The position numbers were made by a program, and so were the translations under genes. Shown piece by piece: positions 1 through 19,500 of a DNA stretch of 64,000 nucleotides (position 1 is the stretch's first letter; each line of letters opens with the position of its first letter). The stretch lies in the NCBI GenBank assembly GCA_030830065.1, contig JAURNR010000047.1, forward strand, positions 4,613 to 68,612, written 5' to 3'. Below the pieces are notes generated by a model. That model saw only the letters and a list, made by a program, of their open reading frames with translations. It was not told where the DNA came from and made no database searches. The DNA is from Bacteroidota bacterium. Lineage in GTDB: Bacteria; Bacteroidota; Bacteroidia; NS11-12g; UBA955.

Positions 1-1169
1 CGGCTCTGGGTAATCTATTCCATTAAATATAAATACCTCGTCTAACCCATTTCGATTAGAACTGTAAGAACCTTTATTATTTGAAAATCTGTAAAAGAAG
101 TCATCCTTATTAGAATTGAATGGTTCTTTTAAGGATTCGATATTTAAGTTATCTTCAGAAAATAAAATATCAAGACCTCCAAATCCACCATGACCATTAC
201 TAGCGAAAAATAGTGTCCCATTTTCGTCAACAAATGGAAAGGATTCTTTCCCAGGAGTATTAATTTTATCACCTAAATTTTTTGGATCATCACTAATGAA
301 AAACCCGTTTGAATTAACTGAATCTACTTTTACACAGTATATATCAACATCACCAAGCCCACCCTTCATATTTGATGCGAAATAAAGAATGTGGTTTTTT
401 ACATCATAATAGGGATGAGATACAGAATAATCGTCTGAATTAATCGGAAGTAATATTTCTCTTTCTGTAACATTCCCATCAACAAGTTGAACATATATTG
501 ATTGAATATTTTTGGTTCCATCAGATGATGGTTTCCCCGACATTTTAGAAATCAGACAATAACTTTGGTCATCAGAAATATAACTGATCTCTGATGAGGT
601 TGAAATGTCGTTATAAAAAAAACTTAAAGTACTATTTGAAATTGTTTGTATTCCAAAATGCGGTTTCCCAAAAGTTTGAGATTTCTTATTGTTTGGATTA
701 ATACTCGTAAAATATTGATTACCCTCATTGGTTTCTAATAGTCCATAAGTATGGTATTTATTTTTATTAGGACTAACAAACTTATTATGTATAACAGTAT
801 CAAAATTAGAAAATGCCTCAGGATGGGCAGGTGATCCTAAGATATAATCAAATTCAGCACTTGCTAAAACAGCATAAAATAATGAGTCTTTTTTCATTGA
901 TTTCAGCAAAGACAACCAATATATCGAGTCACTTTTACTTAATTCGTTAGGAAAAGCTTTTGCGCATTCCGACATTGTTTTTTCTGCTGAATCTATCTCA
1001 CCTGTAAGATAATAAGCATGTGATAACTGCACTAAGAAATTGGGATCAGACGAAATTTTATCTTTTTGACTAATTATATCGTGGACCCTATTTTCGAACA
1101 GGAACTGTTCTATTTGAGCATCCAAACAATTAAATAAAAAAACTGCCTTAAATATTAAGAGTGTGATAC
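1..1169 (-). CDS. TPR + WD40-like (PD40/TolB-type) beta-propeller repeat protein, probably PorE/OmpA-family; N-terminal 390 aa only, C-terminus lies beyond the window start
   Basis: Reverse-complement ORF starts at ATG 1169-1167 and stays open to position 1. Signal-peptide-like N-terminus MLSRITLLIFKAVFLFNCLDAQ. Repeated YFAS..G..GG.D(I/L) PD40 motifs (ILYFASNMKGGLGDVDIY; LFFASNGHGGFGGLDIL). Not in the ORF track, presumably because it runs off the window edge. Confidence 0.55.
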
Positions 1170-1200
1170 GCGATAACATTACTGCAAAAATAATCTTATT

Positions 1201-1240
1201 AAAACAAAAAGCCTCGAACAAGTTCGAGACTTTTTGTTTT
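1201..1240. terminator. Hairpin flanked by an A-run and a T-run (bidirectional rho-independent terminator-like) just downstream of the giant type B CTD gene
   Basis: aaaacaaaaa GCCTCGAAC aagt TCGAGAC tttttgtttt; stem tcgaac/gttcga plus flanking G-C; read on the minus strand the hairpin is followed by a U-run. Confidence 0.5.
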
Positions 1241-1256
1241 AATCTGTAATAAATTA

Positions 1257-4200
1257 CTATTTAGAAGGTCTCAGTAAGTTTACTGAACCATTTACATAAT
1301 TAATCTTATCCTTCCCTTTAAAGCGGTACTGTAACTGATAGAAATACGTTCCTGAAGGAGCATCTGGTCCATCATTATTAATTTTACCATTCCACTGTTT
1401 CTTTGGGTCTTCACTAAAGAATACACGCTCACCCCAACGGTTGAAGATTCTTATTTCAAATAGATCTTGACCTTGGATAGGCACACGATAAGTGTCATTT
1501 AACCCATCTTCGCCCGGAGTGAATACGTTAGCCAGATAGATAAAGAGATCAACTACTACTGGCTTACAAATTGTATCCTCACAACCTGTAGAATTTTTAG
1601 TAATCAAACATACCCAGTAGGTATTTGAACTATCATAACTCCACTTAACCTTTACTTCATCAGACTTTAAGTTCTCAATGAAATCATTTGGTAGTTGCTT
1701 GGTGATATCGTGAGTATGTCCAAAGCCCCATCTCCATTCAACTCCATTAACATCAGTTCTTGTGAATGTAAAGTCAGGCTTACTGGCCGAGTCAATATCA
1801 AAATCTGAATATACTGAGTCTACCAAGAATGTAAGTGTATCCATCTCCGTAGGACACCATGGTCTTGGATGACTTGGGTCGTATTCTGCGTAGTGTAACA
1901 CTCTGTATACTCCAGGATCAGTAAAGGTCTTAGTGTATTGAGTTAAATTAGTCGTAACTGTATCAGTTACCCACTGACCTTGAGCTGTACTGTAGTGTTC
2001 AAATTTCCATTTATAAACCTTAAGAATTGTATCTGAGTTATCTATGAACGTGTTTGAATCACCTGGACAAATTGCAGCTTTCAAGATTTGACCACGAACA
2101 GAGTCACGAGGTAATACCAAAATCTGGAATTTCTCTTGACCTGATAAGGTATCAGGATAAATAGACTTACAGAATTTCATTTCCCCGTCAATCATCAACG
2201 TATCAACTTGCTCTAGATAAACTTCATATAAACCTGGTTGCGTGTATTTATGCCATAGATTATTATTCATATTGGCAGTGTCAACATTGGTGAATGAATT
2301 ATCACCCCAGAACCAAGTGAAGTTTGCGTATGAAGAAGGATCAATAGAAGTATTTTTAAAATCAAGGCTATCATCTACACAAATAGTAACAAAGTTTCCA
2401 GCTTTAGTTCCAAACTCAAAACGAGGAATTGGACCAGGAATCTTTATCTCCTTAACTAACGAATCTCCACAACCCTGATCAGTTAACACTTTCAATACAA
2501 TTTGGAATGTACCGTTACGTGTGTACAAATGACTCGCAGCCTCTGGTAGTGCTTCATCATTTACACTAGTCTTATTGTATTGTACTGTTTTACCATCACC
2601 CCAATCGATATACAACTGTTTCATGAAGTCACATACTGTTGGTGTTGGGCCATTACAATTTTTCACCGCCCAATTACATGGATCGTGCAATACAGATGAG
2701 TCTGTAAACTTAATTGTTGGCGTACATTTTCCAAGACCATCTAATTGTAAACCAAAGTTAACATCTAAACGTGAAATAAATACACGTTTAGCAATGGTAT
2801 CACGACAACCAGTAGAATCACCTGCTATATTTCTGAATGTGTAAACACCAGAATCGTTTTTGTAATAAAGATTACTTCCTCCACCTAATTGAACCCATGG
2901 GTTATTTGTTGATCCCGGCATACCAGAAGCTCCGTATGGTGCGTTACCGAAAATAGTATTGGCATCATTTGGATCATCGTCTTCTTTAGACCAGTCCCAA
3001 CGAGTTGGAGGCTCTTTACCTGCTTGACCATATCTCGCAGGATCTTTCCAATAGTCATATTGGGTGGGATTTTGAGCTGGATCAGCATTCCAATAATAAT
3101 TCCAATCCCATGTTCCGTTATTTTGAGGATCAATGTTAAAGTAACGATAATCTGGAGCAATTGTCAAAGACTCACCATCATTTCTACATACAATAGAGTC
3201 GGTGAATTTATCCATAAACATTGCGAATCCTACAATTATTGGTTTACCATCAAATGCTACACACTCTCCGTTATCCGAAGTCATCGATAAGCCGGCGATG
3301 TGATATCCTGCATATTCTGGGACAAACTTGTAACCATGAACCCAAGCACCATTAATTTGGTGTGAATCAATAGGTGTGATAGTAGAATCACGATAATGTA
3401 GTATGGTAGTCTCAGCTGGATTTGGAACAAAATAGAATTCAATATCTCTGCCATATCCCGCGGTATCAATACAACCATATGCACCTGTTTGAGGTTGGCC
3501 TATAGTTCCTTGGTTATTCCAAATCATTTTAGCGATAGTTGTATCAGCTAGCGCAAATGGATCAAAACCACGATCTTCAAGTCTAGTTTTAATTCTATCC
3601 CAAACCTTTGAAATATCCGCAGCAATCGTATAATCACGAATCTCCGCCGTAAAGATTGTATCCGGACCTTCAACTATTCTCGCCTTTCCATTTGCCCAGT
3701 CATTGGTACATTCTATTTGGTATGGATCTTCAGCATATTTTGTGCGCACAATGTAATTATAAATATAATCAGGGTTCTTACCTGGAACACTATCTTGATA
3801 ATGATAGTAATCTTCATCGATATAACGCAACCAACTCATTCCATATCCAGGACCTGCGTTATTATTAATAAATAACCAACGCAAAGATTTCAAATCACGA
3901 GTTACAGTTAAGTTAGCATCAATAGGTTTTACAATAACTTCATCCCACTTACAGATTTTGTATCCACCCCAACCTTGAGGAGTTAGATTAGCCACTTCCA
4001 TTGCTGGATCAATCATTGGGAAACAAGCAAACTTATCATAGTAGTGAGTATCACTACAAAGTGGACGCTGAGCGCTATTTCCACCTGGCTTGGCAATACC
4101 ATTACCTACTACTATTCCTACAGTAATACAAGAATTAGGGCCCCCTACCATGGATGCAGCATACTGCATAGAGAATTGATTTGGTGGATTACCAGACATA

Positions 4201-6809
4201 TTGTAGGCCGTTGCCCACCATGGAGCAGGAGGATTTAATGGACGTCCTCCCGGTGATAAAGCTGGAAGAGCATTCCAAGAAGCTGCTTGGTTAGGTGGGA
4301 ACGAGAATGTATCGTAATTTATTTGTACATCTGTAAAACTACATCCTGGCTTCAAATCACTTAGTATAAACGTAATTCCATATGTTGGATTTAGTGCTCC
4401 CAAACACTCTATCGCATCTTTGATTAATCCAGAACCAACGCCACCCGCATTAGCATGGAGCATCGCCAATTGTTTGGTTGCCTCACTCTCACACTTGAAT
4501 GGGTGACACGTATCTTTATGAACTAATCTTACACTATTACAAGAAGGAATTCTTGCATAATACAATTCACGAAAACGGTTGTAATCAATTATCCAATCGT
4601 ATTTCTCAATTCCTTGAGGAATTTGTCTAAAGGAGTCTATAGGCGTTATATATTCGCCCTTGTTTAATCGAATCTTTAACAAATTCCCTGGTAACGTATC
4701 TCTTCGAAGGTGTTCGGTATAAAGATATTCAAACGAATCGGTAGGACTGGTTAATATCACTACATCTTCTGGTTTCAGCAAGATAGTATCTTTTGGACCA
4801 ACTACTAGAGTTTTAGTACCCTCTTGTGGGCCAATCCATGCTGAATCGTTGGCGCCTAGACGTATTCTAATAAAATCTTCTTGATACCTTTCAGCTGGTC
4901 CTACAACCTTTTTCTCTCTCCTGAAAATTACTGAACCTTTATTTCCACTAGCGGTATATGAGGCCGAATCAGCAGAAGTAGGAGGTACAGCAATCATTGT
5001 ATCATCGAATATATAAAACCAACTATCAGCATATACCAACAATCGCTTACATAAACCATTACTATCAATAAAAATTGCATCCTCCATTGGAGTCATCTTA
5101 AAGTCTGATAACATTACTAAATCCCATGATTTATAATAATGATAAGGGATGGTATCATGTGAGTAATTACAGTTTACGGTAACGTTTTTATTGTGTAGAA
5201 TATCGGTGGTACATTTTGCACCAAAATTATCACCAAAATCCCACAAACGAGTAGCACACCAGCGTTCACGCTTCAATGGGTCTCCACCACCAGCTGGTGC
5301 GGCTGAACCACCTGCAGGCGCATACACGGTAGTATCACCACGTGAATTCGCCTCCCATCTTACTGGTGGTTGCCAAATTTGAATTGGATTTCCATTGGCA
5401 TCAACCTGGAAAGTATGACCTAACCCACCTGTTGCCTTATAAAAAGTACTATCGTCGTCTGTAAAATCAGGGTCATTATGATAGAAAGTTGAATAATTAC
5501 GGAAGAATACCGTATCCATTACATCTTTAGGACACTGGAATACCTGCCAATCTGGTATTCTATCTCCCATTACATCAATTGTAGATGCAGGACCTAAAAT
5601 TATGATGGTATCATAAATCGATTGATTACCACAAATCGGGTGTTTATAAGTAAGGTTTACAAGAAATGGTCCTAGTCCTGTAAAGGAGTGTGAAGGACTC
5701 CATGTTTTATTATTGAAGTTTTGAGGACCAGAATTAGGATCACCAAAATTCCATAATAAACCAGATGCCCCTGAAGGAACTTGATCCACTGTAAATTCAA
5801 TTTCGGGAGCAGACATACAAGTGGAATCTTTATTTGCAATTATTTTCGCCTTTGATGCATTAACCGTAGCCACGGCTTTCACAACAAATGAATCTACACA
5901 ACCTTGTAGTGTAGTAACAATCAAAGTAGAATTATATGTTCCTTGCCCATAGAACCACTTGCTGTATTGTGGTCCCCACAGCTTATCAAACAAATCTTGT
6001 TCTGCTTGGTCCCCAGTATTGTTCTTAGCTTGCTCTTTAGTACCATCTCCCCAATTCCAAATAATAGAATCAACGAGGTTCTTGTTTAAACGAGTAGCGT
6101 TGGTGATTTTTGCTTCAACTGAATCACAGCCTATTGGCTTATTACTTGCAAATGCAGTACCTATTTTTTCGTAAATAAACATTGCACCTTGCCAATTCAC
6201 AGTGTCTACACAACCATACTCATCTTCAACCTCAATATAAATATCAAAAGTACCACCACGCTGATCTTTAATGGAAAAACAAACCTCGTTAGGTAAATCA
6301 GATGGAGGATATTTATATGAGAACGATTGTCCATCAGACAATAAATATCTCGATTCCTTAATTTTACCACCACCATTTGTAGCATCAACTTCAGAACTAT
6401 CTTTGAAACAGAATAGATTCTTTTCAAAACATTGTTCTCTAATACTAGATCTGGTTAATTTAATTTCTGGTTTTGGACGGATATTTAACTTCGTAGATGA
6501 TTTACAGGTTTGTCCATTGATTGTGGTTTCATACTCCACCGTTGCTTGCCCTGGAGCAAGAAAAGAATAGGAAACTGTTGATTGACCTGAAGTGGTGTAA
6601 GTACCACCTGCTGCATCTTTAAAAGTCCAACTGTGAGTTGTTCCAGTAGAAGAGCCTGTAAAGAAAATCGGTGCATCAACACACTCATTTCCACTAACTG
6701 TAATTGGACAATTTTGAGCATTAACTGCAGATGTTAGTGTAAAAACTAGCGCAATTAAAGCCCAAAGGTTTTTTGTAATCCGTGAGGTTACTATTTTCAT
6801 ATTTTCCAT
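1257..6809 (-). CDS. Giant (~1850 aa) secreted adhesin-like protein with T9SS type B C-terminal sorting domain (SprB-like cargo)
   Basis: C-terminus LANVFTPGEDGLNDTYRVP...IRIFNRWGERVFFSEDPKKQWNGKINNDGPDAPSGTYFYQLQY...VNLLR matches the gliding-motility-associated/type B CTD hallmark (PNxFTPNGDGxND...FNRWG...G.Y.Y). Signal peptide MENMKIVTSRITKNLWALIALVFTLTSAVNAQ suggests the true start is the ATG at 6809, not the longest-ORF start at 6929. Cys-, Thr- and Gly-rich PKD-like repetitive body. Confidence 0.8.
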   Translation of the reverse strand: MENMKIVTSRITKNLWALIALVFTLTSAVNAQNCPITVSGNECVDAPIFFTGSSTGTTHSWTFKDAAGGTYTTSGQSTVSYSFLAPGQATVEYETTINGQTCKSSTKLNIRPKPEIKLTRSSIREQCFEKNLFCFKDSSEVDATNGGGKIKESRYLLSDGQSFSYKYPPSDLPNEVCFSIKDQRGGTFDIYIEVEDEYGCVDTVNWQGAMFIYEKIGTAFASNKPIGCDSVEAKITNATRLNKNLVDSIIWNWGDGTKEQAKNNTGDQAEQDLFDKLWGPQYSKWFYGQGTYNSTLIVTTLQGCVDSFVVKAVATVNASKAKIIANKDSTCMSAPEIEFTVDQVPSGASGLLWNFGDPNSGPQNFNNKTWSPSHSFTGLGPFLVNLTYKHPICGNQSIYDTIIILGPASTIDVMGDRIPDWQVFQCPKDVMDTVFFRNYSTFYHNDPDFTDDDSTFYKATGGLGHTFQVDANGNPIQIWQPPVRWEANSRGDTTVYAPAGGSAAPAGGGDPLKRERWCATRLWDFGDNFGAKCTTDILHNKNVTVNCNYSHDTIPYHYYKSWDLVMLSDFKMTPMEDAIFIDSNGLCKRLLVYADSWFYIFDDTMIAVPPTSADSASYTASGNKGSVIFRREKKVVGPAERYQEDFIRIRLGANDSAWIGPQEGTKTLVVGPKDTILLKPEDVVILTSPTDSFEYLYTEHLRRDTLPGNLLKIRLNKGEYITPIDSFRQIPQGIEKYDWIIDYNRFRELYYARIPSCNSVRLVHKDTCHPFKCESEATKQLAMLHANAGGVGSGLIKDAIECLGALNPTYGITFILSDLKPGCSFTDVQINYDTFSFPPNQAASWNALPALSPGGRPLNPPAPWWATAYNMSGNPPNQFSMQYAASMVGGPNSCITVGIVVGNGIAKPGGNSAQRPLCSDTHYYDKFACFPMIDPAMEVANLTPQGWGGYKICKWDEVIVKPIDANLTVTRDLKSLRWLFINNNAGPGYGMSWLRYIDEDYYHYQDSVPGKNPDYIYNYIVRTKYAEDPYQIECTNDWANGKARIVEGPDTIFTAEIRDYTIAADISKVWDRIKTRLEDRGFDPFALADTTIAKMIWNNQGTIGQPQTGAYGCIDTAGYGRDIEFYFVPNPAETTILHYRDSTITPIDSHQINGAWVHGYKFVPEYAGYHIAGLSMTSDNGECVAFDGKPIIVGFAMFMDKFTDSIVCRNDGESLTIAPDYRYFNIDPQNNGTWDWNYYWNADPAQNPTQYDYWKDPARYGQAGKEPPTRWDWSKEDDDPNDANTIFGNAPYGASGMPGSTNNPWVQLGGGSNLYYKNDSGVYTFRNIAGDSTGCRDTIAKRVFISRLDVNFGLQLDGLGKCTPTIKFTDSSVLHDPCNWAVKNCNGPTPTVCDFMKQLYIDWGDGKTVQYNKTSVNDEALPEAASHLYTRNGTFQIVLKVLTDQGCGDSLVKEIKIPGPIPRFEFGTKAGNFVTICVDDSLDFKNTSIDPSSYANFTWFWGDNSFTNVDTANMNNNLWHKYTQPGLYEVYLEQVDTLMIDGEMKFCKSIYPDTLSGQEKFQILVLPRDSVRGQILKAAICPGDSNTFIDNSDTILKVYKWKFEHYSTAQGQWVTDTVTTNLTQYTKTFTDPGVYRVLHYAEYDPSHPRPWCPTEMDTLTFLVDSVYSDFDIDSASKPDFTFTRTDVNGVEWRWGFGHTHDITKQLPNDFIENLKSDEVKVKWSYDSSNTYWVCLITKNSTGCEDTICKPVVVDLFIYLANVFTPGEDGLNDTYRVPIQGQDLFEIRIFNRWGERVFFSEDPKKQWNGKINNDGPDAPSGTYFYQLQYRFKGKDKINYVNGSVNLLRPSK

Positions 6810-6928
6810 TTGTTGTAAGATTTCAAATTTATGTGATTTAAGCGATAAACGGAAATTCCAATCATTACTAATGAAAGTCCTTGAATTTCCTTGACATTTA
6901 TTGCTTTTATAATTGATTATTTTTCTCA

Positions 6929-8035
6929 TTAATTCCTATTTAACCAAACTGTTGATGTCTTTGATTTCCATTCAGTATCACCTGAATATTTGTATTTCAA
7001 AATGACCGTATAAATTCCTTTTTTGCATTGCCTTCCTCTAAAGTCACCACCCCACTTACCCGTACAGTTATTAGACTCATATACAATTTGTTTTGTTGGG
7101 CCAATTACTCTCATTAAAAACTCCTTAGTAGTAGGCATCTCTGCGTAAAAGGAGTCATTAATACCATCGTTATTGGGGGTAAAAATATTCGGCACAATGA
7201 TATCTTGTTGAATACCATTATTAATTATAAATACTTTACGTTCGATTTTCTGATCACATTTTTTACCTTTTGCACTTATACTCACAGTAAATTCTTTAGA
7301 ATTCAATATATAGAATTTATGCTTTACTTCGAATTGATTTTCTAATATAAATTTGTTAAAATCTAAATCCCCCCAGTCTATTTCAACAGGAATATTTTCA
7401 TTGTTTCTTGCAACATTCACAAAATTCAATATGGCTGTTTGATCTTCAACCATTAGCTCGACACCCAGCAATCCACAGTTCACTGAAGTGGTTATTTGTT
7501 GCTCTGGTATTTGCCCTTCTTTAATGGGATTAGCAACAAAATATTCAGAGGTATCTTCAATGTAATTATTTTCTACATCACCTTTCTCTTCAACTACCGC
7601 ATCTATAATATTAGGTTCTCCAATTAATAACTGGGAATTGTTTCCGGTATATTTGGTAGGTTCTTCTATTGAATCTTTAGAAGTAAAATCTTCTTCAACA
7701 TTTGAAGATGTAGTTTTTGGTGAAATAAGTCCCTTTTTGATTTTGTTTTCATTTTGAACCGAATCAATAACAATTGTTTTGTCCAGATTACTTTGGTTAA
7801 ACCAAACAATAGAGGCTGCAGTTACAGAAACAACAGTTGCAACAACTGCTACTTTCACCCCCGTAACACCTGCTAACTTTGCAGCAATTTTCGATCCTTT
7901 ACTAACCGTTTGTGTAATTTGAGGATTTAAATTTCCTTGAATTGAATTAAAAACTGAACTTGGAGGATTAACCTTTGCGTCCCCTAATCCCTCTTTGAAT
8001 AGCTTATCGATATTTGAACCTAAATTACTCATCAC
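6929..8035 (-). CDS. Anti-sigma-factor-like single-pass membrane protein fused to a T9SS type B C-terminal sorting domain
   Basis: Start overlaps the upstream ECF sigma stop by 11 nt (ATGATGAGTAA). N-terminus DKLFKEGLGDAKVNPPSSVFNSIQGNL resembles the N-termini of Bacteroidota anti-sigma partners. Hydrophobic helix VKVAVVATVVSVTAASIVWF at about aa 61-82. C-terminus IIVPNIFTPNNDGINDSFYAE...GIYTVILKYKYSGDTEWKSKTSTVWLNRN is a type B CTD. Confidence 0.6.
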   Translation of the reverse strand: MMSNLGSNIDKLFKEGLGDAKVNPPSSVFNSIQGNLNPQITQTVSKGSKIAAKLAGVTGVKVAVVATVVSVTAASIVWFNQSNLDKTIVIDSVQNENKIKKGLISPKTTSSNVEEDFTSKDSIEEPTKYTGNNSQLLIGEPNIIDAVVEEKGDVENNYIEDTSEYFVANPIKEGQIPEQQITTSVNCGLLGVELMVEDQTAILNFVNVARNNENIPVEIDWGDLDFNKFILENQFEVKHKFYILNSKEFTVSISAKGKKCDQKIERKVFIINNGIQQDIIVPNIFTPNNDGINDSFYAEMPTTKEFLMRVIGPTKQIVYESNNCTGKWGGDFRGRQCKKGIYTVILKYKYSGDTEWKSKTSTVWLNRN

Positions 8036-8564
8036 CCAGCCATTTTTGCAATAACTTTCGTGCTTTAAACAATTGAGTTTTACTCGTGTTTTCTGAAATT
8101 CCTAAAATTGATGCAATCTCACTATGAGCATACCCTTCAATTGCATACATATTAAAAACAGTCCTGTAGCCTAAGGGCAACTGGCGCAATAGAGTCATCA
8201 AATATTTTTCGTTTAATGTATCTGAGGATTTTTCAGGAATTGAAACTTGAAGAGCATCATCATTCACATTCGTAAATAAATGTGAGCGGTCTTTTCTTAT
8301 GTAGTCAAGACATTGGTTCACACAAATACGCTTTAACCAACCCTCAAAAGAACCCTGAAATTTAAAGTTCCCCAGATTATTGAAAATTTTTATGTAAGAC
8401 TCTTGTAGCATGTCTTGAGCTTGATCTTCGTCCTTGCTGTAACGCAAACAAATTGCAAATAAAACGCTTGAAAAACGTTCATATAACTCTCGTTGAGCAT
8501 CGCTGCTTCCATCCAAACACTGCTGGATTATCGAGGCTTCGTTGCTGCGATTTTGAGATGCCAT
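8025..8564 (-). CDS. ECF-type RNA polymerase sigma-70 factor
   Basis: 179 aa. Region 2-like LYERFSSVLFAICLRYSKDEDQAQDMLQESYIKIF and region 4-like HTH YRTVFNMYAIEGYAHSEIASILGISENTSKTQLFKARKLL. Confidence 0.85.
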   Translation of the reverse strand: MASQNRSNEASIIQQCLDGSSDAQRELYERFSSVLFAICLRYSKDEDQAQDMLQESYIKIFNNLGNFKFQGSFEGWLKRICVNQCLDYIRKDRSHLFTNVNDDALQVSIPEKSSDTLNEKYLMTLLRQLPLGYRTVFNMYAIEGYAHSEIASILGISENTSKTQLFKARKLLQKWLGDE

Positions 8565-8632
8565 TTGCTGAGTTCATCACAAGGATTTATACCAAGATGC
8601 CGAGTATACTTATTAGGTTGCCTGTGTGATAA

Positions 8633-10726: not shown

Positions 10727-11839
10727 CTATTCAGCACTACCCAATCCGATGCGCACTCCAAAAGAATGAACACCGCTGAACGGGTTTGTTGCACGATAGT
10801 TGTAATCTAAAGAAATTACATTCTCATCATTAACATGCCAATCATAAGATAATCCTGCAAATGGACCAGTAAATGCCGAGGTTCTTGTATCTTCAGAGAA
10901 TATTCCTTCTTGATAACAAAATCCGCCTCTTACAGAAAGCATATCCTTGTAGGAATATTCTAGTGCTAGAGTAGACTGATTTGCTGAAAAAGCATGATTA
11001 GTGAAAGCAATACCAACAGTCAAACGATTGTCATACATATTGTCATCCCTATCTAGGCGAATATCATAAGATGCTCCAATGTTTAACAACGCCGGAAGTT
11101 TAATACCTGCTGTTTTAACTTGCATTGTTTTATCGAAATCACCATTTTGAATTACCGCCTTGTAACTCAAGCCATCACCACTAAAGGTCATATCTGGACC
11201 AATGTTCTTAACAGAAACTCCAAATTTGAAATCGTTTCTTTTACTCGCATTTCTACTTGGGAACAATGTAGTTGTGTATTGTACACCTGCGTCCAAAGCC
11301 ACCCCAGATACACTAGCATCAGGAATACCCTCAGATACCATTCTTGCCATTACACCTGCTGAAATAGAATTAGAAAAAGTTTTCGAATACGCTACACCAA
11401 TATTTGTCATATTCACTCGGTAAGTTCCAATTCCTCCGTGCGGATTTTCAACTGTGGTAATTTCAATTGGATCAATACCGAACTGCATTACTTGAATACC
11501 AAGAGAACCAGCATCGCCGTCTTCTCCTAATTTCAATGCCAAACCAAGATTATTGATTCCGATACCAGAACCCATTAACCATTCAGTTCTTGCGAATACT
11601 AATTCAGTTTTATTCGCCATTCTATCTAAGCCACCTACATTCATGAACATCGCTTCAGCACCATTAATACTTCCACCTGCTGTCCATCCTAAACCACCAG
11701 ATCTTGCCCAACCGTTGATTGTTAATTGTGCTGCACCCGCTTGACCCTGTCTTTCTGGGTTACCCGCTTTTAGTATATTAGAGTTAAGTCCAATACATGT
11801 AAGTGCTAAAGCAAAAATCAATTTATAATTTACGTTCAT
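10727..11839 (-). CDS. PorV/FadL-family outer-membrane beta-barrel (PorV-like T9SS shuttle protein paralog)
   Basis: 370 aa with signal peptide. N-terminal LTINGWARSGGLGWTAGGSINGAEAMFMNVGGL aligns to the PorV/FadL hallmark (L.I...ARSGGMGD.G.A.....A....NPA.L). Alternating amphipathic beta-strands. Sits 10 nt downstream of a T9SS CTD protein. Confidence 0.6.
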   Translation of the reverse strand: MNVNYKLIFALALTCIGLNSNILKAGNPERQGQAGAAQLTINGWARSGGLGWTAGGSINGAEAMFMNVGGLDRMANKTELVFARTEWLMGSGIGINNLGLALKLGEDGDAGSLGIQVMQFGIDPIEITTVENPHGGIGTYRVNMTNIGVAYSKTFSNSISAGVMARMVSEGIPDASVSGVALDAGVQYTTTLFPSRNASKRNDFKFGVSVKNIGPDMTFSGDGLSYKAVIQNGDFDKTMQVKTAGIKLPALLNIGASYDIRLDRDDNMYDNRLTVGIAFTNHAFSANQSTLALEYSYKDMLSVRGGFCYQEGIFSEDTRTSAFTGPFAGLSYDWHVNDENVISLDYNYRATNPFSGVHSFGVRIGLGSAE

Positions 11840-11849
11840 CTTTTTTCTA

Positions 11850-14800
11850 TTAATATGTATCTAAATCAACGGCATGCATTATTCCATACCAACGAATAAT
11901 TTTTTCTCCTAATCTTGGTGCGTTAACGTGAATCAAGTATAACCCACTAGCAATTGGCACATTACTACTATTCTTCAAATCCCACTCATAATATGTCAAA
12001 TCATCCGCTTTATTCACAGTGCGAATTAGATTACCTGCCATATCAAAAATGCGTATCTTACATTCTGGAGGGAGGTTGGTAATTTTTACACGGGAATCAA
12101 TAGGACTATTTTCATATTCACTATATCCACGATACGGATTAGGCACAATATTTACTAAATCTAAACTCTTAGTACCCACTTCGTCAGAGATTTTTGGAGC
12201 AATTGATGCACCATCGAACTCATACATTGGACGATCATCATTTCTATCGTCGCCGGTTGCGAAAGTCGTATATGCTTTTTGCACATGCACTTTGAATTTC
12301 ACCTCTGTAGGAGGAATCCCATTGTCCATATTGTAACCTGGGGCCAGGTATGTAGGAATAACCCAAGTTACTGTAGACATTAAACGAATCTTATTAAGAT
12401 TGGTTAATGCAGGTGATGTAAGTGCATTTTTAAATCGGTCGAAATTAGCTTCATCTGGACCTAAATAACGCTCTCCAGAAATATTTCGTGTCAAACCGTG
12501 GTTACCTGTTCCAAAAATGTATAAGAAATGTTTACCACCTATCGCAGGGTAAGATCCATTATCGTTATAAACCGTCGAAGTAGGATTCCAAATCATATCC
12601 CGACCGTTTTCACCGGTTAGATAACTGTCTTCCCCAAAGGCAATTTGCATACGCTCACCAGTTTCAAGATTAATTACATATCCTGGGAACCAGCTCAAGC
12701 CTTTACTTCCAGGTATATCGTTAAAGTCAATATCTTTAGAAGCTGCATCACGCATATTGAATTTCCAGATATTTCCCTCATTACCATTCTTAACCTCGTC
12801 ATCAGACATCTCTAATACCGGACAACGGGTCCACTTCGATTTATCTGGGGTGATAACCAATTCAAAACTATGTAATTCAGAAAGTGGATTTTGCAAGTGA
12901 GTAGCATTACCTGACCAAGCAAAACCAAATGTATTTCTACCATTTGCAGCACTGTACTTTTCACGAGCAGCCAATCCATAAGGCGCGATACGCCCGTTCC
13001 AGATTTTCTCATAAGATTGCCCTGGGTCTAAAGGTGCTCCATCAGTACCCATAAAGTCATGAAGATAACCATCAAAGGTAGCCCCTCTTCCATTGCTCCC
13101 AGAACGAATCCAATTTAGCCAAACACTACCAGAAGTAGGTGTACTTTGTGCATCATTATCCGCAATTGCAGTAAGCCATTGTCTTCCATTATCTTCCCAT
13201 TCTACGGTCCAATCCAACAATCCATTTTGTGGGTCTGCAGCAGAATTTTCGGAAGGGTTGTATACCTGATTAATTTCAACGCTTAAACCCCAATCAGATA
13301 AATTGTCCTTGGTTGCATTGTACTCACTTGGAATACCCTGTACGCTTTCAAAAGGTTGACCAATTGTAGTGTCAGAATATATAGTATCATTTCCATTATC
13401 GCCCTTGCGTACAAGAATCCAATCTGTGTTACGCGTCATTGAATCACGCAAACCAATTGAATTAGATGGTGTGCGCTCTTTGAAGATAAGTTCAAATTTA
13501 TCTATAGGAACTTTCAATGGATCAACTACCTTCACGTTAACCGGACCAAATCCGCCCATGTATGTAGGCTGAGTAACAAAATTTGTAGCTAGAATTTCTT
13601 TTACAGTTTCCTCTGTAAACTCGAGCGACATTCCTCCATTTCCACGACCTGAAATTCTCTTTAAAACGGGGCCACTTCCATAGGTAGAATTCAGTTCTGT
13701 TCCGAAATTCTCAGAATCTGTTTTATGAGGGGTAGCACGGTAAACTTGAATATTTCTACGACCCGCTAAAAACTGGTTTGGATCAATCTGCAAAGTATCG
13801 TCTGAAAGTACGGCATAACTCAAAATCATGTAGTAATAATTCTTGTAATCTACAAGAGATGTATTTGCTGACGTTGCAAAAAGGTCATTCTTGATACTAA
13901 AAGTATGTTGAACACCTTTGTCCGCTCCATCTACTTTTTCAACTGGTATCATTTGAGATAACTTTGGATCAAACACTTGATTTACTATTTGTCCTCGATT
14001 ATTTTGTACGTCACACTGGAATAACAAACGCGCCTTATCAATATTATCAAGATCAGAAGTATTTACCGTAGCATCTTTTAATTGATAAACTAAGTAACCT
14101 TCAAACTTATATGTTAACTCTTCGTTATTTGCATTCTTATACTTCTCTGTATAATTTTCAACTTTTGTAGAATTTGTATTCAAGAATTTCAAAACTAATT
14201 CTTGCTCTAATTCCTGTATTTCAACATCTGGAGCATCAGGCCCATCAAGAATTTTGAAATTATTGTTAAACAGAGTTTGTGCTTTATCCGAAGCAAGTTT
14301 TAATAGATCTAATGACCCAGTAGCACCACCACTTGTAGTTCTCGCCCATACAACACCTACGGTAATTCTTTGAACTTGACCAGGACGCAATAAGAAAGGA
14401 CCTGTAGATTGCAAGAAACGACGGTCACCAGGACGATTTCCCGAAGATTTCTCATCCCAACAACGACCAGCAAATTCAGGATCCGTACAACCAGGATACA
14501 TATAATTTGAAATTTCGCTTCCGCCAAATCCATTACCTCCCCAAGTCACATTTTGTCCACCTTTCCATTTACCTCTCAAGTAGTTATAAAATGAATTAGG
14601 ATTACCTCTATCAGGGTTACCGTTAATAGGATTTGCATCATTATTGTAATACATAAAGTGGCTCATCCCCATTTGATTACCAGCAGTATCTGTTGGACCC
14701 TCAAAATAATCAACACCTATAGTTGGAGGATTTAAACCATAGCCTAAAACACCTTCATCATCATCGTCACCATTGTAACAAAAACCTAAACTTCTTCCCA

Positions 14801-15743
14801 CATCACAACCCACGTAGTCATCTGCGTAATTACCTAGGTCAGCATCAACCCATTGACCCATGTAACAGTCATTAAGGGTTGTAAAACCTCTGTTGATGAT
14901 CTTGGTTGAATAAAAGGTCATATTATTCACTTCATCGTTGGTCGCAAACGCAAAGGCAGTAGTTTGACACTCCACACCAATTGGTTGACCCGAACTTTCA
15001 GAGTGAATATTTCCTTTATCGTTGTATACCCACCAAATGAACATATCCGGCTGACGATTAACTCCATTTTCAGCATTTGGACGTCTTTCATCTAAAACTG
15101 GATGCTCACCATCAAAAGGGTTATAAATTCCATCAGGAACAATTTCTTTATATGGAGCTAGGTAATTAGCTTCGGGCCCTAATCCTACCGAACGATTACT
15201 TCCCGCAGGCCAGTCACGAATACCAATACTTTGAGTTAAAAATTTAGACTCTTCAAATTCCTCTAATTCATCACGCGTAACTTTCCACATACGATCATAA
15301 GACTCACAACGCAATGGTTCAGTCGCTGCTGTAGTAGTATCCAAAGGACCAGGCCAAAAGTCAGAACCAAACTGTCGATAAGTCATTGCAGCTAACTTCA
15401 GGTTACCTCCGTTATCTTTACCACCTATCCAAATGGCACCTGCAAACAATGAGTGTTTTCTGACAGCGTTTGGATCATTAATTTTAGGAATTTCATATTT
15501 AGGATTATTTAAATCCCACCACATATCGCCTCCGTTCAACAACTTTGTTCTCACGTTGTTAATGTCTAAGTCTACCGATTGTGACGCTGGGTTACATGTG
15601 CTTGCAAATGCACCTGCTCTCTTATTCACACTATTCGACTTCGACGAAGATCGTCCCTGTATATTAACCACAGGACGTGCTGCCACCATGGATACCAGGG
15701 CGATACTTGCAGCTAATATTCCGAATTTTTTCGTCATTTTCAT
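11850..15743 (-). CDS. Large (1297 aa) secreted protein with T9SS type A C-terminal domain; synteny with the PorV-like gene makes a PorU-like protein possible
   Basis: Signal peptide MKMTKKFGILAASIALVSMVAA. C-terminal LVNIVPNPYRGYSEYENSPIDSRVKITNLPPECKIRIFDMAGNLIRTVNKADD...ASGLYLIHVNAP fits the Por_Secre_tail pattern, followed by a ~20-aa extension (RLGEKIIRWYGIMHAVDLDTY). Acidic Cys-containing core (DDYVGCDVGRSLGFCYNGDDDDEG). Confidence 0.7.
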   Translation of the reverse strand: MKMTKKFGILAASIALVSMVAARPVVNIQGRSSSKSNSVNKRAGAFASTCNPASQSVDLDINNVRTKLLNGGDMWWDLNNPKYEIPKINDPNAVRKHSLFAGAIWIGGKDNGGNLKLAAMTYRQFGSDFWPGPLDTTTAATEPLRCESYDRMWKVTRDELEEFEESKFLTQSIGIRDWPAGSNRSVGLGPEANYLAPYKEIVPDGIYNPFDGEHPVLDERRPNAENGVNRQPDMFIWWVYNDKGNIHSESSGQPIGVECQTTAFAFATNDEVNNMTFYSTKIINRGFTTLNDCYMGQWVDADLGNYADDYVGCDVGRSLGFCYNGDDDDEGVLGYGLNPPTIGVDYFEGPTDTAGNQMGMSHFMYYNNDANPINGNPDRGNPNSFYNYLRGKWKGGQNVTWGGNGFGGSEISNYMYPGCTDPEFAGRCWDEKSSGNRPGDRRFLQSTGPFLLRPGQVQRITVGVVWARTTSGGATGSLDLLKLASDKAQTLFNNNFKILDGPDAPDVEIQELEQELVLKFLNTNSTKVENYTEKYKNANNEELTYKFEGYLVYQLKDATVNTSDLDNIDKARLLFQCDVQNNRGQIVNQVFDPKLSQMIPVEKVDGADKGVQHTFSIKNDLFATSANTSLVDYKNYYYMILSYAVLSDDTLQIDPNQFLAGRRNIQVYRATPHKTDSENFGTELNSTYGSGPVLKRISGRGNGGMSLEFTEETVKEILATNFVTQPTYMGGFGPVNVKVVDPLKVPIDKFELIFKERTPSNSIGLRDSMTRNTDWILVRKGDNGNDTIYSDTTIGQPFESVQGIPSEYNATKDNLSDWGLSVEINQVYNPSENSAADPQNGLLDWTVEWEDNGRQWLTAIADNDAQSTPTSGSVWLNWIRSGSNGRGATFDGYLHDFMGTDGAPLDPGQSYEKIWNGRIAPYGLAAREKYSAANGRNTFGFAWSGNATHLQNPLSELHSFELVITPDKSKWTRCPVLEMSDDEVKNGNEGNIWKFNMRDAASKDIDFNDIPGSKGLSWFPGYVINLETGERMQIAFGEDSYLTGENGRDMIWNPTSTVYNDNGSYPAIGGKHFLYIFGTGNHGLTRNISGERYLGPDEANFDRFKNALTSPALTNLNKIRLMSTVTWVIPTYLAPGYNMDNGIPPTEVKFKVHVQKAYTTFATGDDRNDDRPMYEFDGASIAPKISDEVGTKSLDLVNIVPNPYRGYSEYENSPIDSRVKITNLPPECKIRIFDMAGNLIRTVNKADDLTYYEWDLKNSSNVPIASGLYLIHVNAPRLGEKIIRWYGIMHAVDLDTY

Positions 15744-15753
15744 TAATTCTTTT

Positions 15754-18700
15754 TTAGTTCAAACTGAAACGGATTCCCAAACGGATGGTACGTGGTCTAT
15801 TCCAGTTACCTGTTTGAGAGTTTAACAATAAGCGGTATAAGTCGGTATAACTTTGTGCATCCACTTGATTTCTTATCAATAGCTGACCTTGCGGTGACGT
15901 TAAGAAACCATCATCATTAGGTTGACCAGTGTAAGGGAATACTCCAGTAACATTCCAAGTATTAAGTAGGTTATTAACCCAAAGGAATGCCGCAAAACGC
16001 AATGGATTTTTTGAATCACCACGATTAAGCTGGAATGATTTAGTTAAGTTAAAGTCAAAGTTATACTGCCATGGCAAACGTGCTCCAAATGGAACACCCT
16101 TAATCTGCGCACGGTCAACAGCACCAATTTGCACAGGTCTTACTGTTGGAGTATATGGACCACCGCTATATGTATTGGCAATAATGTTGATACTAGTATT
16201 TTTCAAAACTTCCTTACCGAACAGAATAGGTCCTTTGTATAGATTTCTGCGATTTCTATCACGTCCTCCGGCCCAAGCCCAAGTTGCAGACAACTTGATG
16301 TTGTGGCGAATATCCAAATCACCCAAAGGAATTACAGTTCTCAAATTTGGCTGGTTAGAAGCGATTAACGCTGCCTGAGAGTTGATGTTTGATCCAGTAC
16401 CATCAGCAAACTGCAACATATAACTCGCAGAAAGAGTCATCGGACCAATATCTCTCATTACAAAATTTCCACGGAATCCTGTAATTGTTGCGAAATCAAT
16501 ATTTCTGTATGTTGAATATGTAACAGGATATCCCTGATTGATTTGATAGAGTCCAAAATCATTTCTTATTTCTGAATAGGACGCCGCTAACTCCAGTCCT
16601 TTATCATTTCTTCTACCAAAAATTTGTTTAAATCCTACTTCATAATCCGTCTTCAAACGAGAATTTAATGAACCGTTTGCTAAAGTAGAACCCTGTCTAA
16701 ACTTCAAAAAGTAAACATCGTCAATAGAAACAAACGACGCTCCAGCGTTTGGACGCTGTGCTAAAACATCGTAACTAACGTAGAATGACTTTCTCTTGTC
16801 GAGAGGAAATGAGAACCAGACACGAGGTAACAAGTTTACTATTGGAGTATAGTCCATGAAGGTAGCTTCAGTTACTTCTTGAGTATCTGTTCTGTATAAG
16901 TATGGTGCAATACGTCCATTTACTGTTTTGTTCGCCAAGAACTCAGGGTTTCTTTGTTCCGAACCGTCGGCATTAAACCACTTATCTCCCATACGGTATC
17001 CTACGATTTGAGTAGGAGATTCCATATCGTTCACATAAACTTTTGCATCCTCAGCAATATTGGAAGGGTGATTAATTGGTAAACCATTAATCTCACCAAC
17101 TTCAGCTGCTGTTTTAATTGGATATAATGAATATGGATCTGCCAACACAATTTGGTTTGCATCGTAACGTTCCATACGAAGTCCTAGACGGAAGATCAAG
17201 TCTTTAAATTGGAACTGGTCTTGTAACCAAGCAGCAATATAAATTGGTTGGAAAGCACCGATTGTGCGCTTATCTGGATCATTCAAGAATTCAGAAATAG
17301 AAGGTTTTCCTTTTACCTTATTTCCTAAATGATCATATCCAAAGTAATTAACATATCCATTACCATTGTTCAATAACTCATTCGCATTGAACATGTCTAA
17401 ACTAAAATCTCCAGGTTTATAGCTGTTGATATCTACAAACGTTCTTTCATCAATAGCTTTGCCATAAACATCAGTGGCTCCTTGAGAAATTAATTTATTT
17501 CTAAAATTGCGATCAAAAGTAGATTGCTCTTCATAATTCACCAATCTATTATAGCGGATTGTATCAGTAAATACTCCATTTTCATCATACGATAAAATAG
17601 GATTTTCGATATCCAATTCACCGATATGTTTATTCATTAACTGACGCATTAAGATCCATAAACCGTTTGCGTTTAAACCATAACCTCTATTAATATTTTG
17701 CTCATAATAAAAACCAGCTTGCAAATCATGAGGAGTACGCTGTCTGCCACCTTGTGTTTTTGGCTTAACTTGCATCTGACCCAAAGCAAATAATGAATAT
17801 TTTTCAGATTGGTTCCTACTCCATCCACCAACGGTTGTTCCAGGAGTAGACCAAAGCGAATAAACGTTTACAGGGTTGTAACCGTTCAATAAACCTTGGC
17901 TAGCTAGAACTGTCAAAGGGTTTGTGATTTTTGCACCTCTTTGGGTGTAAAAATCGTATACATTTGAGGTGTATCTTGCACGAACAGGATTCAAGTCGCT
18001 CGCCTGGTAATCTAACAGAGTATCCATGTAACCTATATGCTCCCAATAGTTACTTAACTGAACATAGTTTCCAAACTGATCACGAACAACTCTTGGGTCC
18101 TTGTTTGGATTTTGTTGTGCATCTGTGTGGGAGTATGCAAATACTTCCGTTGGATAAGCTGTAAATGACCCTACATATCCATAATTAAAAACATCATCTA
18201 AATGATCTGCATTTCTTGAGAAAGACCAAGCATTTTGATATTCTGCACGAACAGTGTAGAATGCAGATTTAATATTACTACGCTTGTCGACTTTAAAATT
18301 CTGACGGAACTGAAGATAAGATCTGAAAGTATGGTTATCGATTCTTGCAGTATTCGCAAAGTTTAAAATATTATTTGTTACGCTTCTTCCTCCGCCATAA
18401 AAGTAAGATGCAAAAGCTGTAAGCGATATATATTTATTGGGATTAAACTCTAGTTTTCCAATGAAGTTTGAGTTAAACTGTTGTGAGTTTGGGCGAGCTG
18501 CAATATTTTGGAAATCAGACTCTCGTAAGAAAGAAGCAGAATGCACGAAACCATTTGGAGTAATGGTCAACGGATTTTGCTCAATCTCCGACATTTTCTC
18601 ATCATTTAACACATAAACACCTGTACGTGTGGGTGAAGGATCGTAGTAATAACCAACGTTTCCGTTTAACGTAAAACCTAGCTTTACGAGCTTATCGGTT

Positions 18701-19500
18701 GTTCCATTGGCATTTTTCTTTTTTTGAACCCACAATGGCCCCGAAACAAATCCTTCCAATGTACTGTATCCATAAGGATCTAAAAACTGGGAAGTTATTC
18801 CTTCAAAGATTGAAATATATTTATCTGTCGCACTCTTGGATGTGTAGGAAAATGCTCCACCCGTTAAGTCACCATACATGGCTGGAATACCACCGATATT
18901 TACAGATAGCTGATCCACTCCTAAAGATGGAATAGCACCACTACCGATTACACGCATACCATCAACGAATGTACCATTACCGTCTGAACGCGTTCCTCTA
19001 ACGGAAATACCTTGACGTGATTCAACAATTGCAGAGTTCGTGGAGGTTAATGCACCCATACCACGCCTTCCACTATTTATCATCTGCTTTCCGTCAATCG
19101 AAGCCTCATTTTGCTCCATTTGAATAACCTTTTTCGATGCTTTAGTGGAAATCACAACCGCCGTCATTGAGGAAGTCATGTTTACAGTCTTAGGTTCATT
19201 CAATCCTGCACGTAGCGTTAAATCCGTAATTTTCTGGGTTGAAAATCCGTCTTTTGATGCTTCCATGTCATAAGTACCAGGGTTTAAGGTTTGGAAAATT
19301 ACATTTCCATCCATGTCTGTAGTATCATATGCTTTTTTGATACCGTTTAAATACATGTTAACCATTACCCCACTCATGCGTTTACCATCACCGTCTAAAG
19401 CGGTCACCCGAAAATCCGCAAAGTTGGTCTGAGCAAATGTAATTGCTGAAAACATTCCAGCAATTACCAAGAGCGACCATTTCAGTAGTTTATCTCTCAT
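15754..19500 (-). CDS. TonB-dependent-receptor-like outer-membrane protein with N-terminal carboxypeptidase-regulatory-like domain and plug (1248 aa)
   Basis: Signal peptide. CarboxypepD_reg-like GVMVNMYLNGIKKAYDTTDMDGNVIFQTLNPGTYDMEASKDGF. Plug-like ISVRGTRSDGNGTFVDGMRV...IPAMYGDLTGGAFSYTSKS. Long beta-rich C-terminal region. No SusD-like partner follows. Confidence 0.7.
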   Translation of the reverse strand: MRDKLLKWSLLVIAGMFSAITFAQTNFADFRVTALDGDGKRMSGVMVNMYLNGIKKAYDTTDMDGNVIFQTLNPGTYDMEASKDGFSTQKITDLTLRAGLNEPKTVNMTSSMTAVVISTKASKKVIQMEQNEASIDGKQMINSGRRGMGALTSTNSAIVESRQGISVRGTRSDGNGTFVDGMRVIGSGAIPSLGVDQLSVNIGGIPAMYGDLTGGAFSYTSKSATDKYISIFEGITSQFLDPYGYSTLEGFVSGPLWVQKKKNANGTTDKLVKLGFTLNGNVGYYYDPSPTRTGVYVLNDEKMSEIEQNPLTITPNGFVHSASFLRESDFQNIAARPNSQQFNSNFIGKLEFNPNKYISLTAFASYFYGGGRSVTNNILNFANTARIDNHTFRSYLQFRQNFKVDKRSNIKSAFYTVRAEYQNAWSFSRNADHLDDVFNYGYVGSFTAYPTEVFAYSHTDAQQNPNKDPRVVRDQFGNYVQLSNYWEHIGYMDTLLDYQASDLNPVRARYTSNVYDFYTQRGAKITNPLTVLASQGLLNGYNPVNVYSLWSTPGTTVGGWSRNQSEKYSLFALGQMQVKPKTQGGRQRTPHDLQAGFYYEQNINRGYGLNANGLWILMRQLMNKHIGELDIENPILSYDENGVFTDTIRYNRLVNYEEQSTFDRNFRNKLISQGATDVYGKAIDERTFVDINSYKPGDFSLDMFNANELLNNGNGYVNYFGYDHLGNKVKGKPSISEFLNDPDKRTIGAFQPIYIAAWLQDQFQFKDLIFRLGLRMERYDANQIVLADPYSLYPIKTAAEVGEINGLPINHPSNIAEDAKVYVNDMESPTQIVGYRMGDKWFNADGSEQRNPEFLANKTVNGRIAPYLYRTDTQEVTEATFMDYTPIVNLLPRVWFSFPLDKRKSFYVSYDVLAQRPNAGASFVSIDDVYFLKFRQGSTLANGSLNSRLKTDYEVGFKQIFGRRNDKGLELAASYSEIRNDFGLYQINQGYPVTYSTYRNIDFATITGFRGNFVMRDIGPMTLSASYMLQFADGTGSNINSQAALIASNQPNLRTVIPLGDLDIRHNIKLSATWAWAGGRDRNRRNLYKGPILFGKEVLKNTSINIIANTYSGGPYTPTVRPVQIGAVDRAQIKGVPFGARLPWQYNFDFNLTKSFQLNRGDSKNPLRFAAFLWVNNLLNTWNVTGVFPYTGQPNDDGFLTSPQGQLLIRNQVDAQSYTDLYRLLLNSQTGNWNRPRTIRLGIRFSLN

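Follow-up and report, generated by a model that had tools for sequence, protein, structure and literature searches.

How does a giant type IX secretion system (T9SS) cargo protein come to be encoded behind a sigma factor and a second protein with the same class of sorting domain, with no outer-membrane shuttle gene at its side? The locus that raises this question lies at the start of the window, by which we mean the whole 64,000-nt stretch of Bacteroidota DNA analyzed here (contig JAURNR010000047.1). An earlier interpretation made from the letters alone, referred to below as the sequence-only reading, had described four co-directional genes, and all four are present on the minus strand as described. 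In the order of transcription they encode a sigma factor of the extracytoplasmic function (ECF) type, an anti-sigma-like protein with a C-terminal domain (CTD) of type B, a giant protein with another type B CTD, and a PorE-like PD40/OmpA protein. On balance, we lean towards the view that the first three genes form a module of freshwater Flavobacteriales-like Bacteroidota for envelope signalling and cargo production, in which an anti-sigma factor of the Dma type would reach the outer membrane by way of the type IX system.

What computation established, in the window and in its relatives, is the structure of the genes, the homology of their domains, the footprints of promoters, the terminators and the synteny. 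A contig from ENA (L001), identical to the window, extends the sequence by 10 kb past position 1. With the giant protein as query, 35 loci were retrieved from a genome collection, from metagenome-assembled genomes (MAGs) of freshwater Bacteroidota/Flavobacteriales.

The ECF sigma factor and the CTD-bearing protein encoded with it

The sigma factor gene (8025..8564, minus strand) encodes a 179-aa protein that matches Sigma70_r2 (E = 6e-14), Sigma70_r4_2 (E = 4e-16) and TIGR02937 (86 bits; cutoff 43). Made up of only sigma-70 regions 2 and 4 in about 180 aa, it has the composition of an ECF sigma factor. Upstream of this gene, at 8595..8622 on the minus strand, the sequence GGCAACC-N16-CATCT is a candidate autoregulatory promoter of the ECF type. 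Its two boxes, G(G/A)CAACC and C(A/T)TCT, enclose a spacer that is fixed at 16 nt and variable in sequence, and they are found 5' of the sigma factor gene in all 31 related loci. Where the anti-sigma-like gene and the sigma factor gene do not overlap, which is the case in four loci, a second copy of the motif stands 5' of the anti-sigma-like gene. Elements of the same kind precede the sigma factor genes of two further loci discussed below, L051 (GCAACC-N16-CATCA) and L049 (GCAACC-N16-CGTCT). No other copy was found when the motif was searched for elsewhere in the window, and it is absent in front of the giant gene in every locus examined. Such a distribution would be expected for an ECF promoter under autoregulation, and the motif is a candidate for that function.

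The next gene (6929..8032, minus strand) starts at an ATG at 8032 or a GTG at 8035, giving 367 or 368 aa, and its start overlaps the stop of the sigma factor gene by 8 nt. Its product can be divided, on the same strand, into a sigma-binding-like N-terminal region (8032..7913), a predicted membrane helix (7858..7799), a disordered tether (7798..7481), an Ig-like domain (7480..7220) and a type B CTD (7201..6932). The sole Pfam match is to CHU_C, at 42 bits (cutoff 27), and five distant orthologs also score above this cutoff (35-47 bits). The architecture is the same in all of about 30 loci, though the orthologs are only 22-33% identical to the window protein. In order, they contain the motif M..(I/L)DxLF(R/K)xxLxxAxxxPPxGVxxxxxxQL, a variable-length spacer, a single hydrophobic segment, a poorly conserved linker (residues 80-185), a PKD-like domain and CHU_C. 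All 30 orthologs have a hydrophobic 19-mer (Kyte-Doolittle 1.1-2.7), whose start falls between residues 45 and 81. By inspection, the protein has no cleavable signal peptide, and about 45-80 hydrophilic residues precede the sole hydrophobic segment. The AlphaFold2 model has a predicted local distance difference test score (pLDDT) of 85-94 for the Ig-like sandwich and the CTD, and below 30 over most of residues 31-184. Between the window and the related locus L002, this protein is 49% identical, compared to 85-97% for its neighbours and 95% for the giant. A search of PDB sequences with the protein found nothing.

The N-terminal region connects this middle protein to the Dma anti-sigma factors. 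A set of 1.84 billion representative proteins was searched with a profile of the first 78 residues of the middle protein. Besides more proteins composed of the motif, a helix and CHU_C, the search found proteins in which one to six copies of the motif precede a membrane helix, a long linker of low complexity and, at the C-terminus, an OMP_b-brl_2 barrel. The matches to sigma-adjacent OMP_b-brl_2 proteins had E values of 1e-9 to 4e-6, and the alignment by hhalign of the N-termini of the middle-protein set to those of the sigma-adjacent OMP_b-brl_2 set yielded a probability of 98.9% (E = 4e-17). Every gene with the N-terminal motif whose context was examined directly follows an ECF sigma factor gene (31 clade loci, L042, L047/L048, L049 and L051). 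An architecture of this kind, with the barrel in the outer membrane, defines the Dma family of Bacteroides, and the first 40 aa of Dma1 suffice for binding the ECF21 sigma factor Das1 (PMC10927553, PMC13088901).

Like a Dma protein, the middle protein is encoded directly 3' of a Bacteroidota ECF sigma factor gene. It likewise has a short N-terminal region predicted to be cytoplasmic, a single membrane segment, a long disordered tether that would lie in the periplasm, and a folded C-terminal module apparently aimed at the outer membrane. The homology in sequence is to the sigma-adjacent OMP_b-brl_2 proteins, and the likeness to Dma1 and Reo is by description. For Reo, as for Dma1, sequestration of the sigma factor by the N-terminus has reportedly been shown by experiment. 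The window sigma factor is 48% identical to that of L049, which adjoins an OMP_b-brl_2 protein of Dma architecture and has the similar upstream motif given above; the partner of Dma is an ECF21 sigma factor, and the window sigma factor is placed at the level of the ECF superfamily (TIGR02937). The study of Rhodius et al. makes no mention of ECF21. Unlike Dma, the middle protein lacks the C-terminal 8-stranded OMP_b-brl_2 barrel and carries an Ig-like domain and a T9SS type B CTD instead, and it is therefore a variant of Dma and not a strict member. A giant T9SS cargo gene also comes next in the window, and there is no known link to vesiculation.

The best reading of these comparisons makes the middle protein an anti-sigma factor of the Dma type whose barrel would have given way to an Ig-like domain and a type B CTD. 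The label "anti-sigma-like" given previously fits this homology; what the sequence-only reading missed is that the CTD-bearing anti-sigma factor is the unusual part of the locus. A literature search found no description of an anti-sigma factor with an Ig-like domain and a type B CTD. It is also observed that several proteins of Dma architecture (P0105, P0109, P0111, P0115 and the protein encoded at 8001..9707 of L049) have two to six tandem sigma-binding-like motifs before the membrane helix. No mention of tandem copies was found in the Dma papers PMC10927553 and PMC13088901.

The 367-aa protein could instead be a small secreted surface protein with a long or extended signal peptide, exported in full by Sec and the T9SS and without any anti-sigma function. 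Its confidently folded Ig-like domain and type B CTD are typical of cargo, the membrane helix is absent from the AlphaFold2 model, and a possible AxA-like site (TAAS) can be read after the hydrophobic stretch. A signal peptide, however, would not be expected to begin anywhere between residues 45 and 81, as the hydrophobic stretch does owing to the variable spacer after the N-terminal motif. This motif is homologous to that of the Dma-architecture proteins, some of which carry it in tandem copies. The gene always follows an ECF sigma factor gene, usually overlapping it, and has its own copy of the ECF promoter where the two are separate. We consider this explanation quite unlikely, and the protein is treated below as a Dma-type anti-sigma factor.

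The giant cargo and its putative promoter

The giant gene (1257..6809, minus strand) encodes a type B CTD cargo of 1850 aa from the ATG at 6809, the length given by the sequence-only reading, or of 1847 aa from the ATG at 6800. The complete open reading frame is 6929..1257 (1890 aa), and public gene calls from ENA and NCBI use this start. In relatives, the first 40 codons show no conservation of a coding kind, so that the true start is the ATG at 6809 or the one at 6800, and the public gene call is 40 codons too long. On this comparison, the 40-codon extension (6810..6929) is not coding but conserved regulatory DNA, with a hairpin and a -7 box. The protein has a PKD_4 domain, a CTD that passes both the Pfam and the NCBIfam thresholds (CHU_C, 65 bits; TIGR04131, 43.6 bits with a cutoff of 35) and, by inspection, a cleavable Sec signal peptide (MKIVTSRITKNLWALIALVFTLTSAVNA, cleaved before Q). 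The two consecutive type B CTDs noticed earlier are real, that of the giant being above both cutoffs and that of the middle protein above the Pfam cutoff only.

The giant is 95% identical to its ortholog in L002. Among the 35 MAG loci, the identity of the best segment is 49-59%, with one locus at 95%, and the orthologs are mostly full-length. The protein is conserved over its whole length, to a degree roughly equal to or better than HolB and MnmE across the clade, and its annotation is to be corrected to that of a protein as conserved as housekeeping proteins. For residues 440-1390, AlphaFold2 predicts an all-beta chain of beta-sandwich domains (pLDDT 78). Foldseek matched this core only to Ig/MG domains in generic chains, among them complement C3/A2M, the grappling-hook protein of Aureispira and S-layer proteins, at a TM-score of about 0.1, and a PDB sequence search found no solved relative. 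With only such generic matches, no function can be assigned to the core. The previous label "adhesin-like" is thus unproven, and a conserved structural role at the surface is at least as likely.

The region 5' of the giant gene contains TAAATTTG (6824..6831, minus strand), which matches TAnnTTTG, the -7 box of the housekeeping sigma factor of Bacteroidota as known from Bacteroides promoters. TAnnTTTG(A) is present 5' of the giant start codon in all clade loci examined; its distance to the start is 14-23 nt in the window and, for most relatives, about 25-35 nt. The giant gene therefore appears to have its own housekeeping-type promoter. The sequence-only reading had suggested that the giant is ECF-regulated rather than constitutive; examination of the promoters does not support this, as the ECF motif was found at the sigma factor gene (31/31) and never at the giant gene, where the TAnnTTTG box stands. 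Dependence of the giant on the ECF sigma factor is not exclusive and may be lacking altogether. No conserved terminator was found between the anti-sigma-like gene and the giant gene, which makes co-transcription of the three genes plausible and read-through from the ECF promoter possible. A long imperfect hairpin (6840..6906, minus strand) with the core GGAAATTC...GAATTTCC and a stability of about -15 kcal/mol is kept in L001, L002 and L005. It was considered as a terminator and rejected, having no U-tract and not being conserved across the clade.

The three-gene unit and a proposed mechanism

Comparative synteny, proposed as a check by the sequence-only reading, found the sigma factor gene, the middle gene and the giant gene kept together, but the PorE-like gene absent outside the genus of the window and no PorP/SprF gene flanking. 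The order shared by the clade is a 1248-aa CarboxypepD_reg protein, a 1297-aa protein, a PorV/PorQ-family protein, GreA, HIT, HolB, the sigma factor, the CTD-bearing membrane protein, the giant and MnmE. The whole 20-kb region, with its housekeeping genes, is collinear in the clade, so the synteny within the clade carries little weight and the argument for a unit rests on two distant contexts. In L051, between neighbours that include LytB and Asd, a sigma factor gene is followed by a gene for a 346-aa protein with motif, helix and CHU_C and, after 26 nt, by a gene for an 1833-aa homolog collinear with the giant (22-27% identity). In L047/L048, a third neighbourhood, the corresponding 431-aa protein is separated by 30 nt from a giant homolog of 30-34% identity. 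The triad of sigma factor, CTD-bearing anti-sigma factor and giant homolog is thus found in three neighbourhoods, holB...mnmE, L047/L048 and L051. The conserved unit consists of three genes (sigma factor, anti-sigma-like and giant) and occurs in at least three unrelated neighbourhoods.

There are also homologs of the giant whose CTD is of type A (PF18962) and not of type B (P0017, P0049, P0050, P0053, P0057, P0059, L043-L045 and L028). They are 120-300 aa shorter, with up to 65% identity to the window giant (P0017). The informative contexts (L044, L045 and the paralog L028) are other neighbourhoods and have no sigma/anti-sigma pair; P0017 is among the homologs that lack it. One MAG has both versions, the type A paralog L028 and the type B triad L022. 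The two versions represent an exchange of the CTD type inside a single protein family. On the comparisons available, we favour a functional link between the three genes, with few informative cases.

The genes may alternatively be uncoupled neighbours. The sigma/anti-sigma pair would then be a general regulator of envelope stress or vesiculation, like Dma1/Das1, with a CTD that only delivers the sensor end to the outer membrane, and the giant would be an independent, constitutive orphan cargo. The conserved TAnnTTTG box of the giant gene and its lack of an ECF motif are consistent with this explanation, as are the type A giant homologs without the pair, the collinearity of the clade region including its housekeeping genes, and the location of known Dma regulons elsewhere in the genome (PMC10927553). 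However, the triad recurs in two further unrelated neighbourhoods with a gap of only 26-30 nt between the anti-sigma-like and giant genes, and no conserved terminator separates them. We regard uncoupled neighbours as a serious possibility, though not a probable one. As a separate observation, a Chitinophagaceae MAG (L042, 7531..11764) encodes an ECF sigma factor, an overlapping 512-aa protein with the N-terminal motif and a membrane helix, and a PKD-rich cargo with a type A CTD. The C-terminus of the 512-aa protein has no Pfam match; the arrangement is analogous to the triad but with type A cargo.

In the three-gene module that we favour, sigma binding, membrane topology, T9SS engagement and the regulon would be arranged as follows. 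The ECF sigma factor would transcribe its own operon from GGCAACC-N16-CATCT, and the translationally coupled next gene would encode its anti-sigma factor. As homology to Dma1 and Reo suggests, the N-terminal ~40 residues of the latter would keep the sigma factor in the cytoplasm, in an N-in topology. One helix would cross the inner membrane, and a disordered tether of about 100 residues would cross the periplasm. The docking site of the type B CTD would be the T9SS translocon or a PorP/SprF-type shuttle whose gene lies elsewhere in the genome, so that the docked anti-sigma factor would connect both membranes by proxy. What happens at the T9SS or the outer membrane would then trigger proteolysis of the anti-sigma factor and free the sigma factor. 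Expression of the giant would rely on its own promoter of housekeeping type and, probably, on additional read-through out of the sigma operon, and the transcription unit would end at the terminator after the giant gene.

Docking of the CTD is proposed because of the known biology of type B CTDs, which PorP-like proteins hold at the outer membrane (PMC9143113, PMC12618676), and because of a precedent in Porphyromonas gingivalis, where the CTD of PorA serves in the periplasm as a regulatory ligand and does so also under tethering to the inner membrane (PMC12152298). The PorA/PorY-PorX/SigP pathway resembles the proposed module in using a T9SS CTD as a periplasmic regulatory element that ultimately controls an ECF sigma factor (PMC7712824, PMC12152298), and PorA still signals when artificially tethered to the inner membrane (PMC12152298). 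PorA differs in being a free cargo with a type A CTD that acts through a two-component system; in the window the CTD is of type B and fused to the anti-sigma factor in one polypeptide, with no PorXY as far as seen. The FecA-FecR-FecI system offers another likeness, as an inner-membrane regulator of a sigma factor senses an outer-membrane machine through its periplasmic C-terminal domain (PMC9249621, PMC11637429). The families involved are unrelated, however, and the outer-membrane partner in the Fec system is a TonB-dependent transducer and not the T9SS.

A tentative extension, which we hold to be possible rather than probable, is that the CTD would be a working T9SS signal, and that the translocon or shuttle would grip the tethered end or try to export it, tying release of the sigma factor to T9SS activity or shuttle occupancy. 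If true, one polypeptide would provide trans-envelope feedback from a secretion machine to transcription, tuning a giant cargo that carries the same class of signal. The pathway known to match gene expression to the state of the T9SS in Bacteroidota is chiefly PorXY-SigP-PorA of P. gingivalis. A T9SS sorting domain as the sensor end of an anti-sigma factor would be a simple handle on such matching and on how Dma anti-sigma factors sense the outer membrane.

Several observations weigh against the proposed module and its mechanism. The lack of an ECF motif at the giant gene in any locus, together with its own -7 box, means that the sigma factor may not control the giant, and the collinearity of the clade region limits what synteny can contribute. 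The CTD of the middle protein scores 23.2 bits against TIGR04131, below the NCBIfam cutoff of 35. In the AlphaFold2 model, the hydrophobic segment is not helical, and the two short N-terminal helices have a pLDDT of only ~50. Anchoring in the inner membrane is incompatible with being a conventional T9SS substrate. Identity between the two CTDs is only 29%, and they are of different subtypes; identity within a genome (29.3%) and across genomes (28.4%) gives no sign of convergence, and nothing therefore indicates a shared shuttle. Moreover, no PorP/SprF protein of this genome was seen in the stretch read, from -10 kb to +55 kb.

The missing shuttle, the PorE-like gene and flanking genes

The sequence-only reading had noted that no PorP/SprF gene was in view, and this observation stands: none was found among the plausible candidates of the 64-kb window by targeted NCBIfam/Pfam scans of its open reading frames with signal peptides or barrel-like features. 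A scan of the window for an N-terminal motif of PorP/SprF also gave no match, which is weak evidence. The suggestion that the partner lies just outside the window was refuted when the contig was extended, as the 10 kb past position 1 (L001) contain none, and none flanks the giant in about 35 related loci. The genes past position 1 encode the PD40/OmpA protein, FTHFS, MnmE, CSD, RRM, three hypothetical proteins and RmuC. An NCBI contig of 2.0 Mb (L046; GCA_038141325.1, JAYQHW010000002.1) that is 99% identical to the window also reaches past position 1. Many genes are split in L046 (HIT, FTHFS, MnmE and others), which suggests frameshift errors in that assembly.

In Flavobacterium johnsoniae, an sprF-like gene follows 9 of 12 type B genes, and 5-6 such operons have a porE-like gene (PMC12618676, PMC9143113). 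The remaining three of the 12 substrates of type B (Fjoh_1123, Fjoh_1720, Fjoh_4934) are orphans with a remote shuttle, Fjoh_1677 (PMC12618676). Since orphan type B cargo is known, the absence of PorP/SprF is not novel, an adjoining shuttle is not obligatory, and the different secretion route entertained in the sequence-only reading is not needed. The type B CTD proteins of the window resemble these orphans in having no adjoining PorP/SprF gene, but differ in that one of the two has no signal peptide and is predicted to be anchored in the inner membrane. The F. johnsoniae arrangement could still be imagined here as a standard operon of cargo, shuttle and PorE-like anchor with its PorP/SprF gene just beyond the window, given that a PorE-like gene does follow the giant. 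Adjacency of a shuttle gene is already refuted by the 10-kb extension, the window candidates and the ~35 related loci, and the PorE-like gene is itself a genus-specific insertion preceded by a terminator. The standard operon is accordingly a very remote prospect.

This terminator (1198..1243, minus strand) is intrinsic, with a 20-pair stem and a T-run, and terminators of different sequence occur at the same position in L002 and L051. The 5' part of the fourth gene occupies 1..1179 on the minus strand, starting at 1179 and running off the window, and its full length of 618 aa was obtained from the identical contig L001. The earlier description of its product as a TPR and PD40, PorE/OmpA-like protein holds for OmpA (E = 3e-17) and weakly for PD40, but no TPR domain was found at E <= 0.01. 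The protein scores 197 bits against the PorE model NF052230 (cutoff 600) and 235 bits against CHU_0125 (cutoff 620), and no PorP-like gene adjoins its gene. It is, on these scores, best described as a PorE paralog and not PorE. Between the window and L002 the protein is 50% identical, compared to 85-97% for the neighbours; the divergence is in the N-terminal and propeller part, and the OmpA domain is ~85% conserved.

The PD40/OmpA gene and FTHFS (15751..19331 in L001) are found between the giant gene and mnmE in the window's genus only, and mnmE lies directly 3' of the giant gene in about 25 related genomes. Given the terminator and this absence from relatives, the fourth gene is neither co-transcribed nor conserved with the other three. 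It is a later, separately transcribed, genus-specific insertion and not part of the conserved module. The proposal of a single operon of four genes is therefore upheld in part: the sigma factor and second genes are coupled and, with no terminator before the giant gene, an operon of three is plausible, but the fourth gene is excluded by the terminator at 1243..1198 and by its absence in ~25 genomes.

Further upstream of the sigma factor gene, the window encodes at 10727..15743 (minus strand) a 1297-aa protein whose tail weakly matches PorZ or a type A CTD, followed directly by a 370-aa protein of the PorV/PorQ family (NF033709, 116 bits; cutoff 90). The pair shares 97% identity with that of L002 and 60-74% identity across the clade, where its synteny is always kept. 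It has the look of a dedicated cargo with a PorQ-like protein. Upstream of this pair is a conserved gene at 15754..19500 (minus strand) for the 1248-aa protein, which starts with a CarboxypepD_reg domain, resembles a barrel towards its C-terminus and matches no NCBIfam family.

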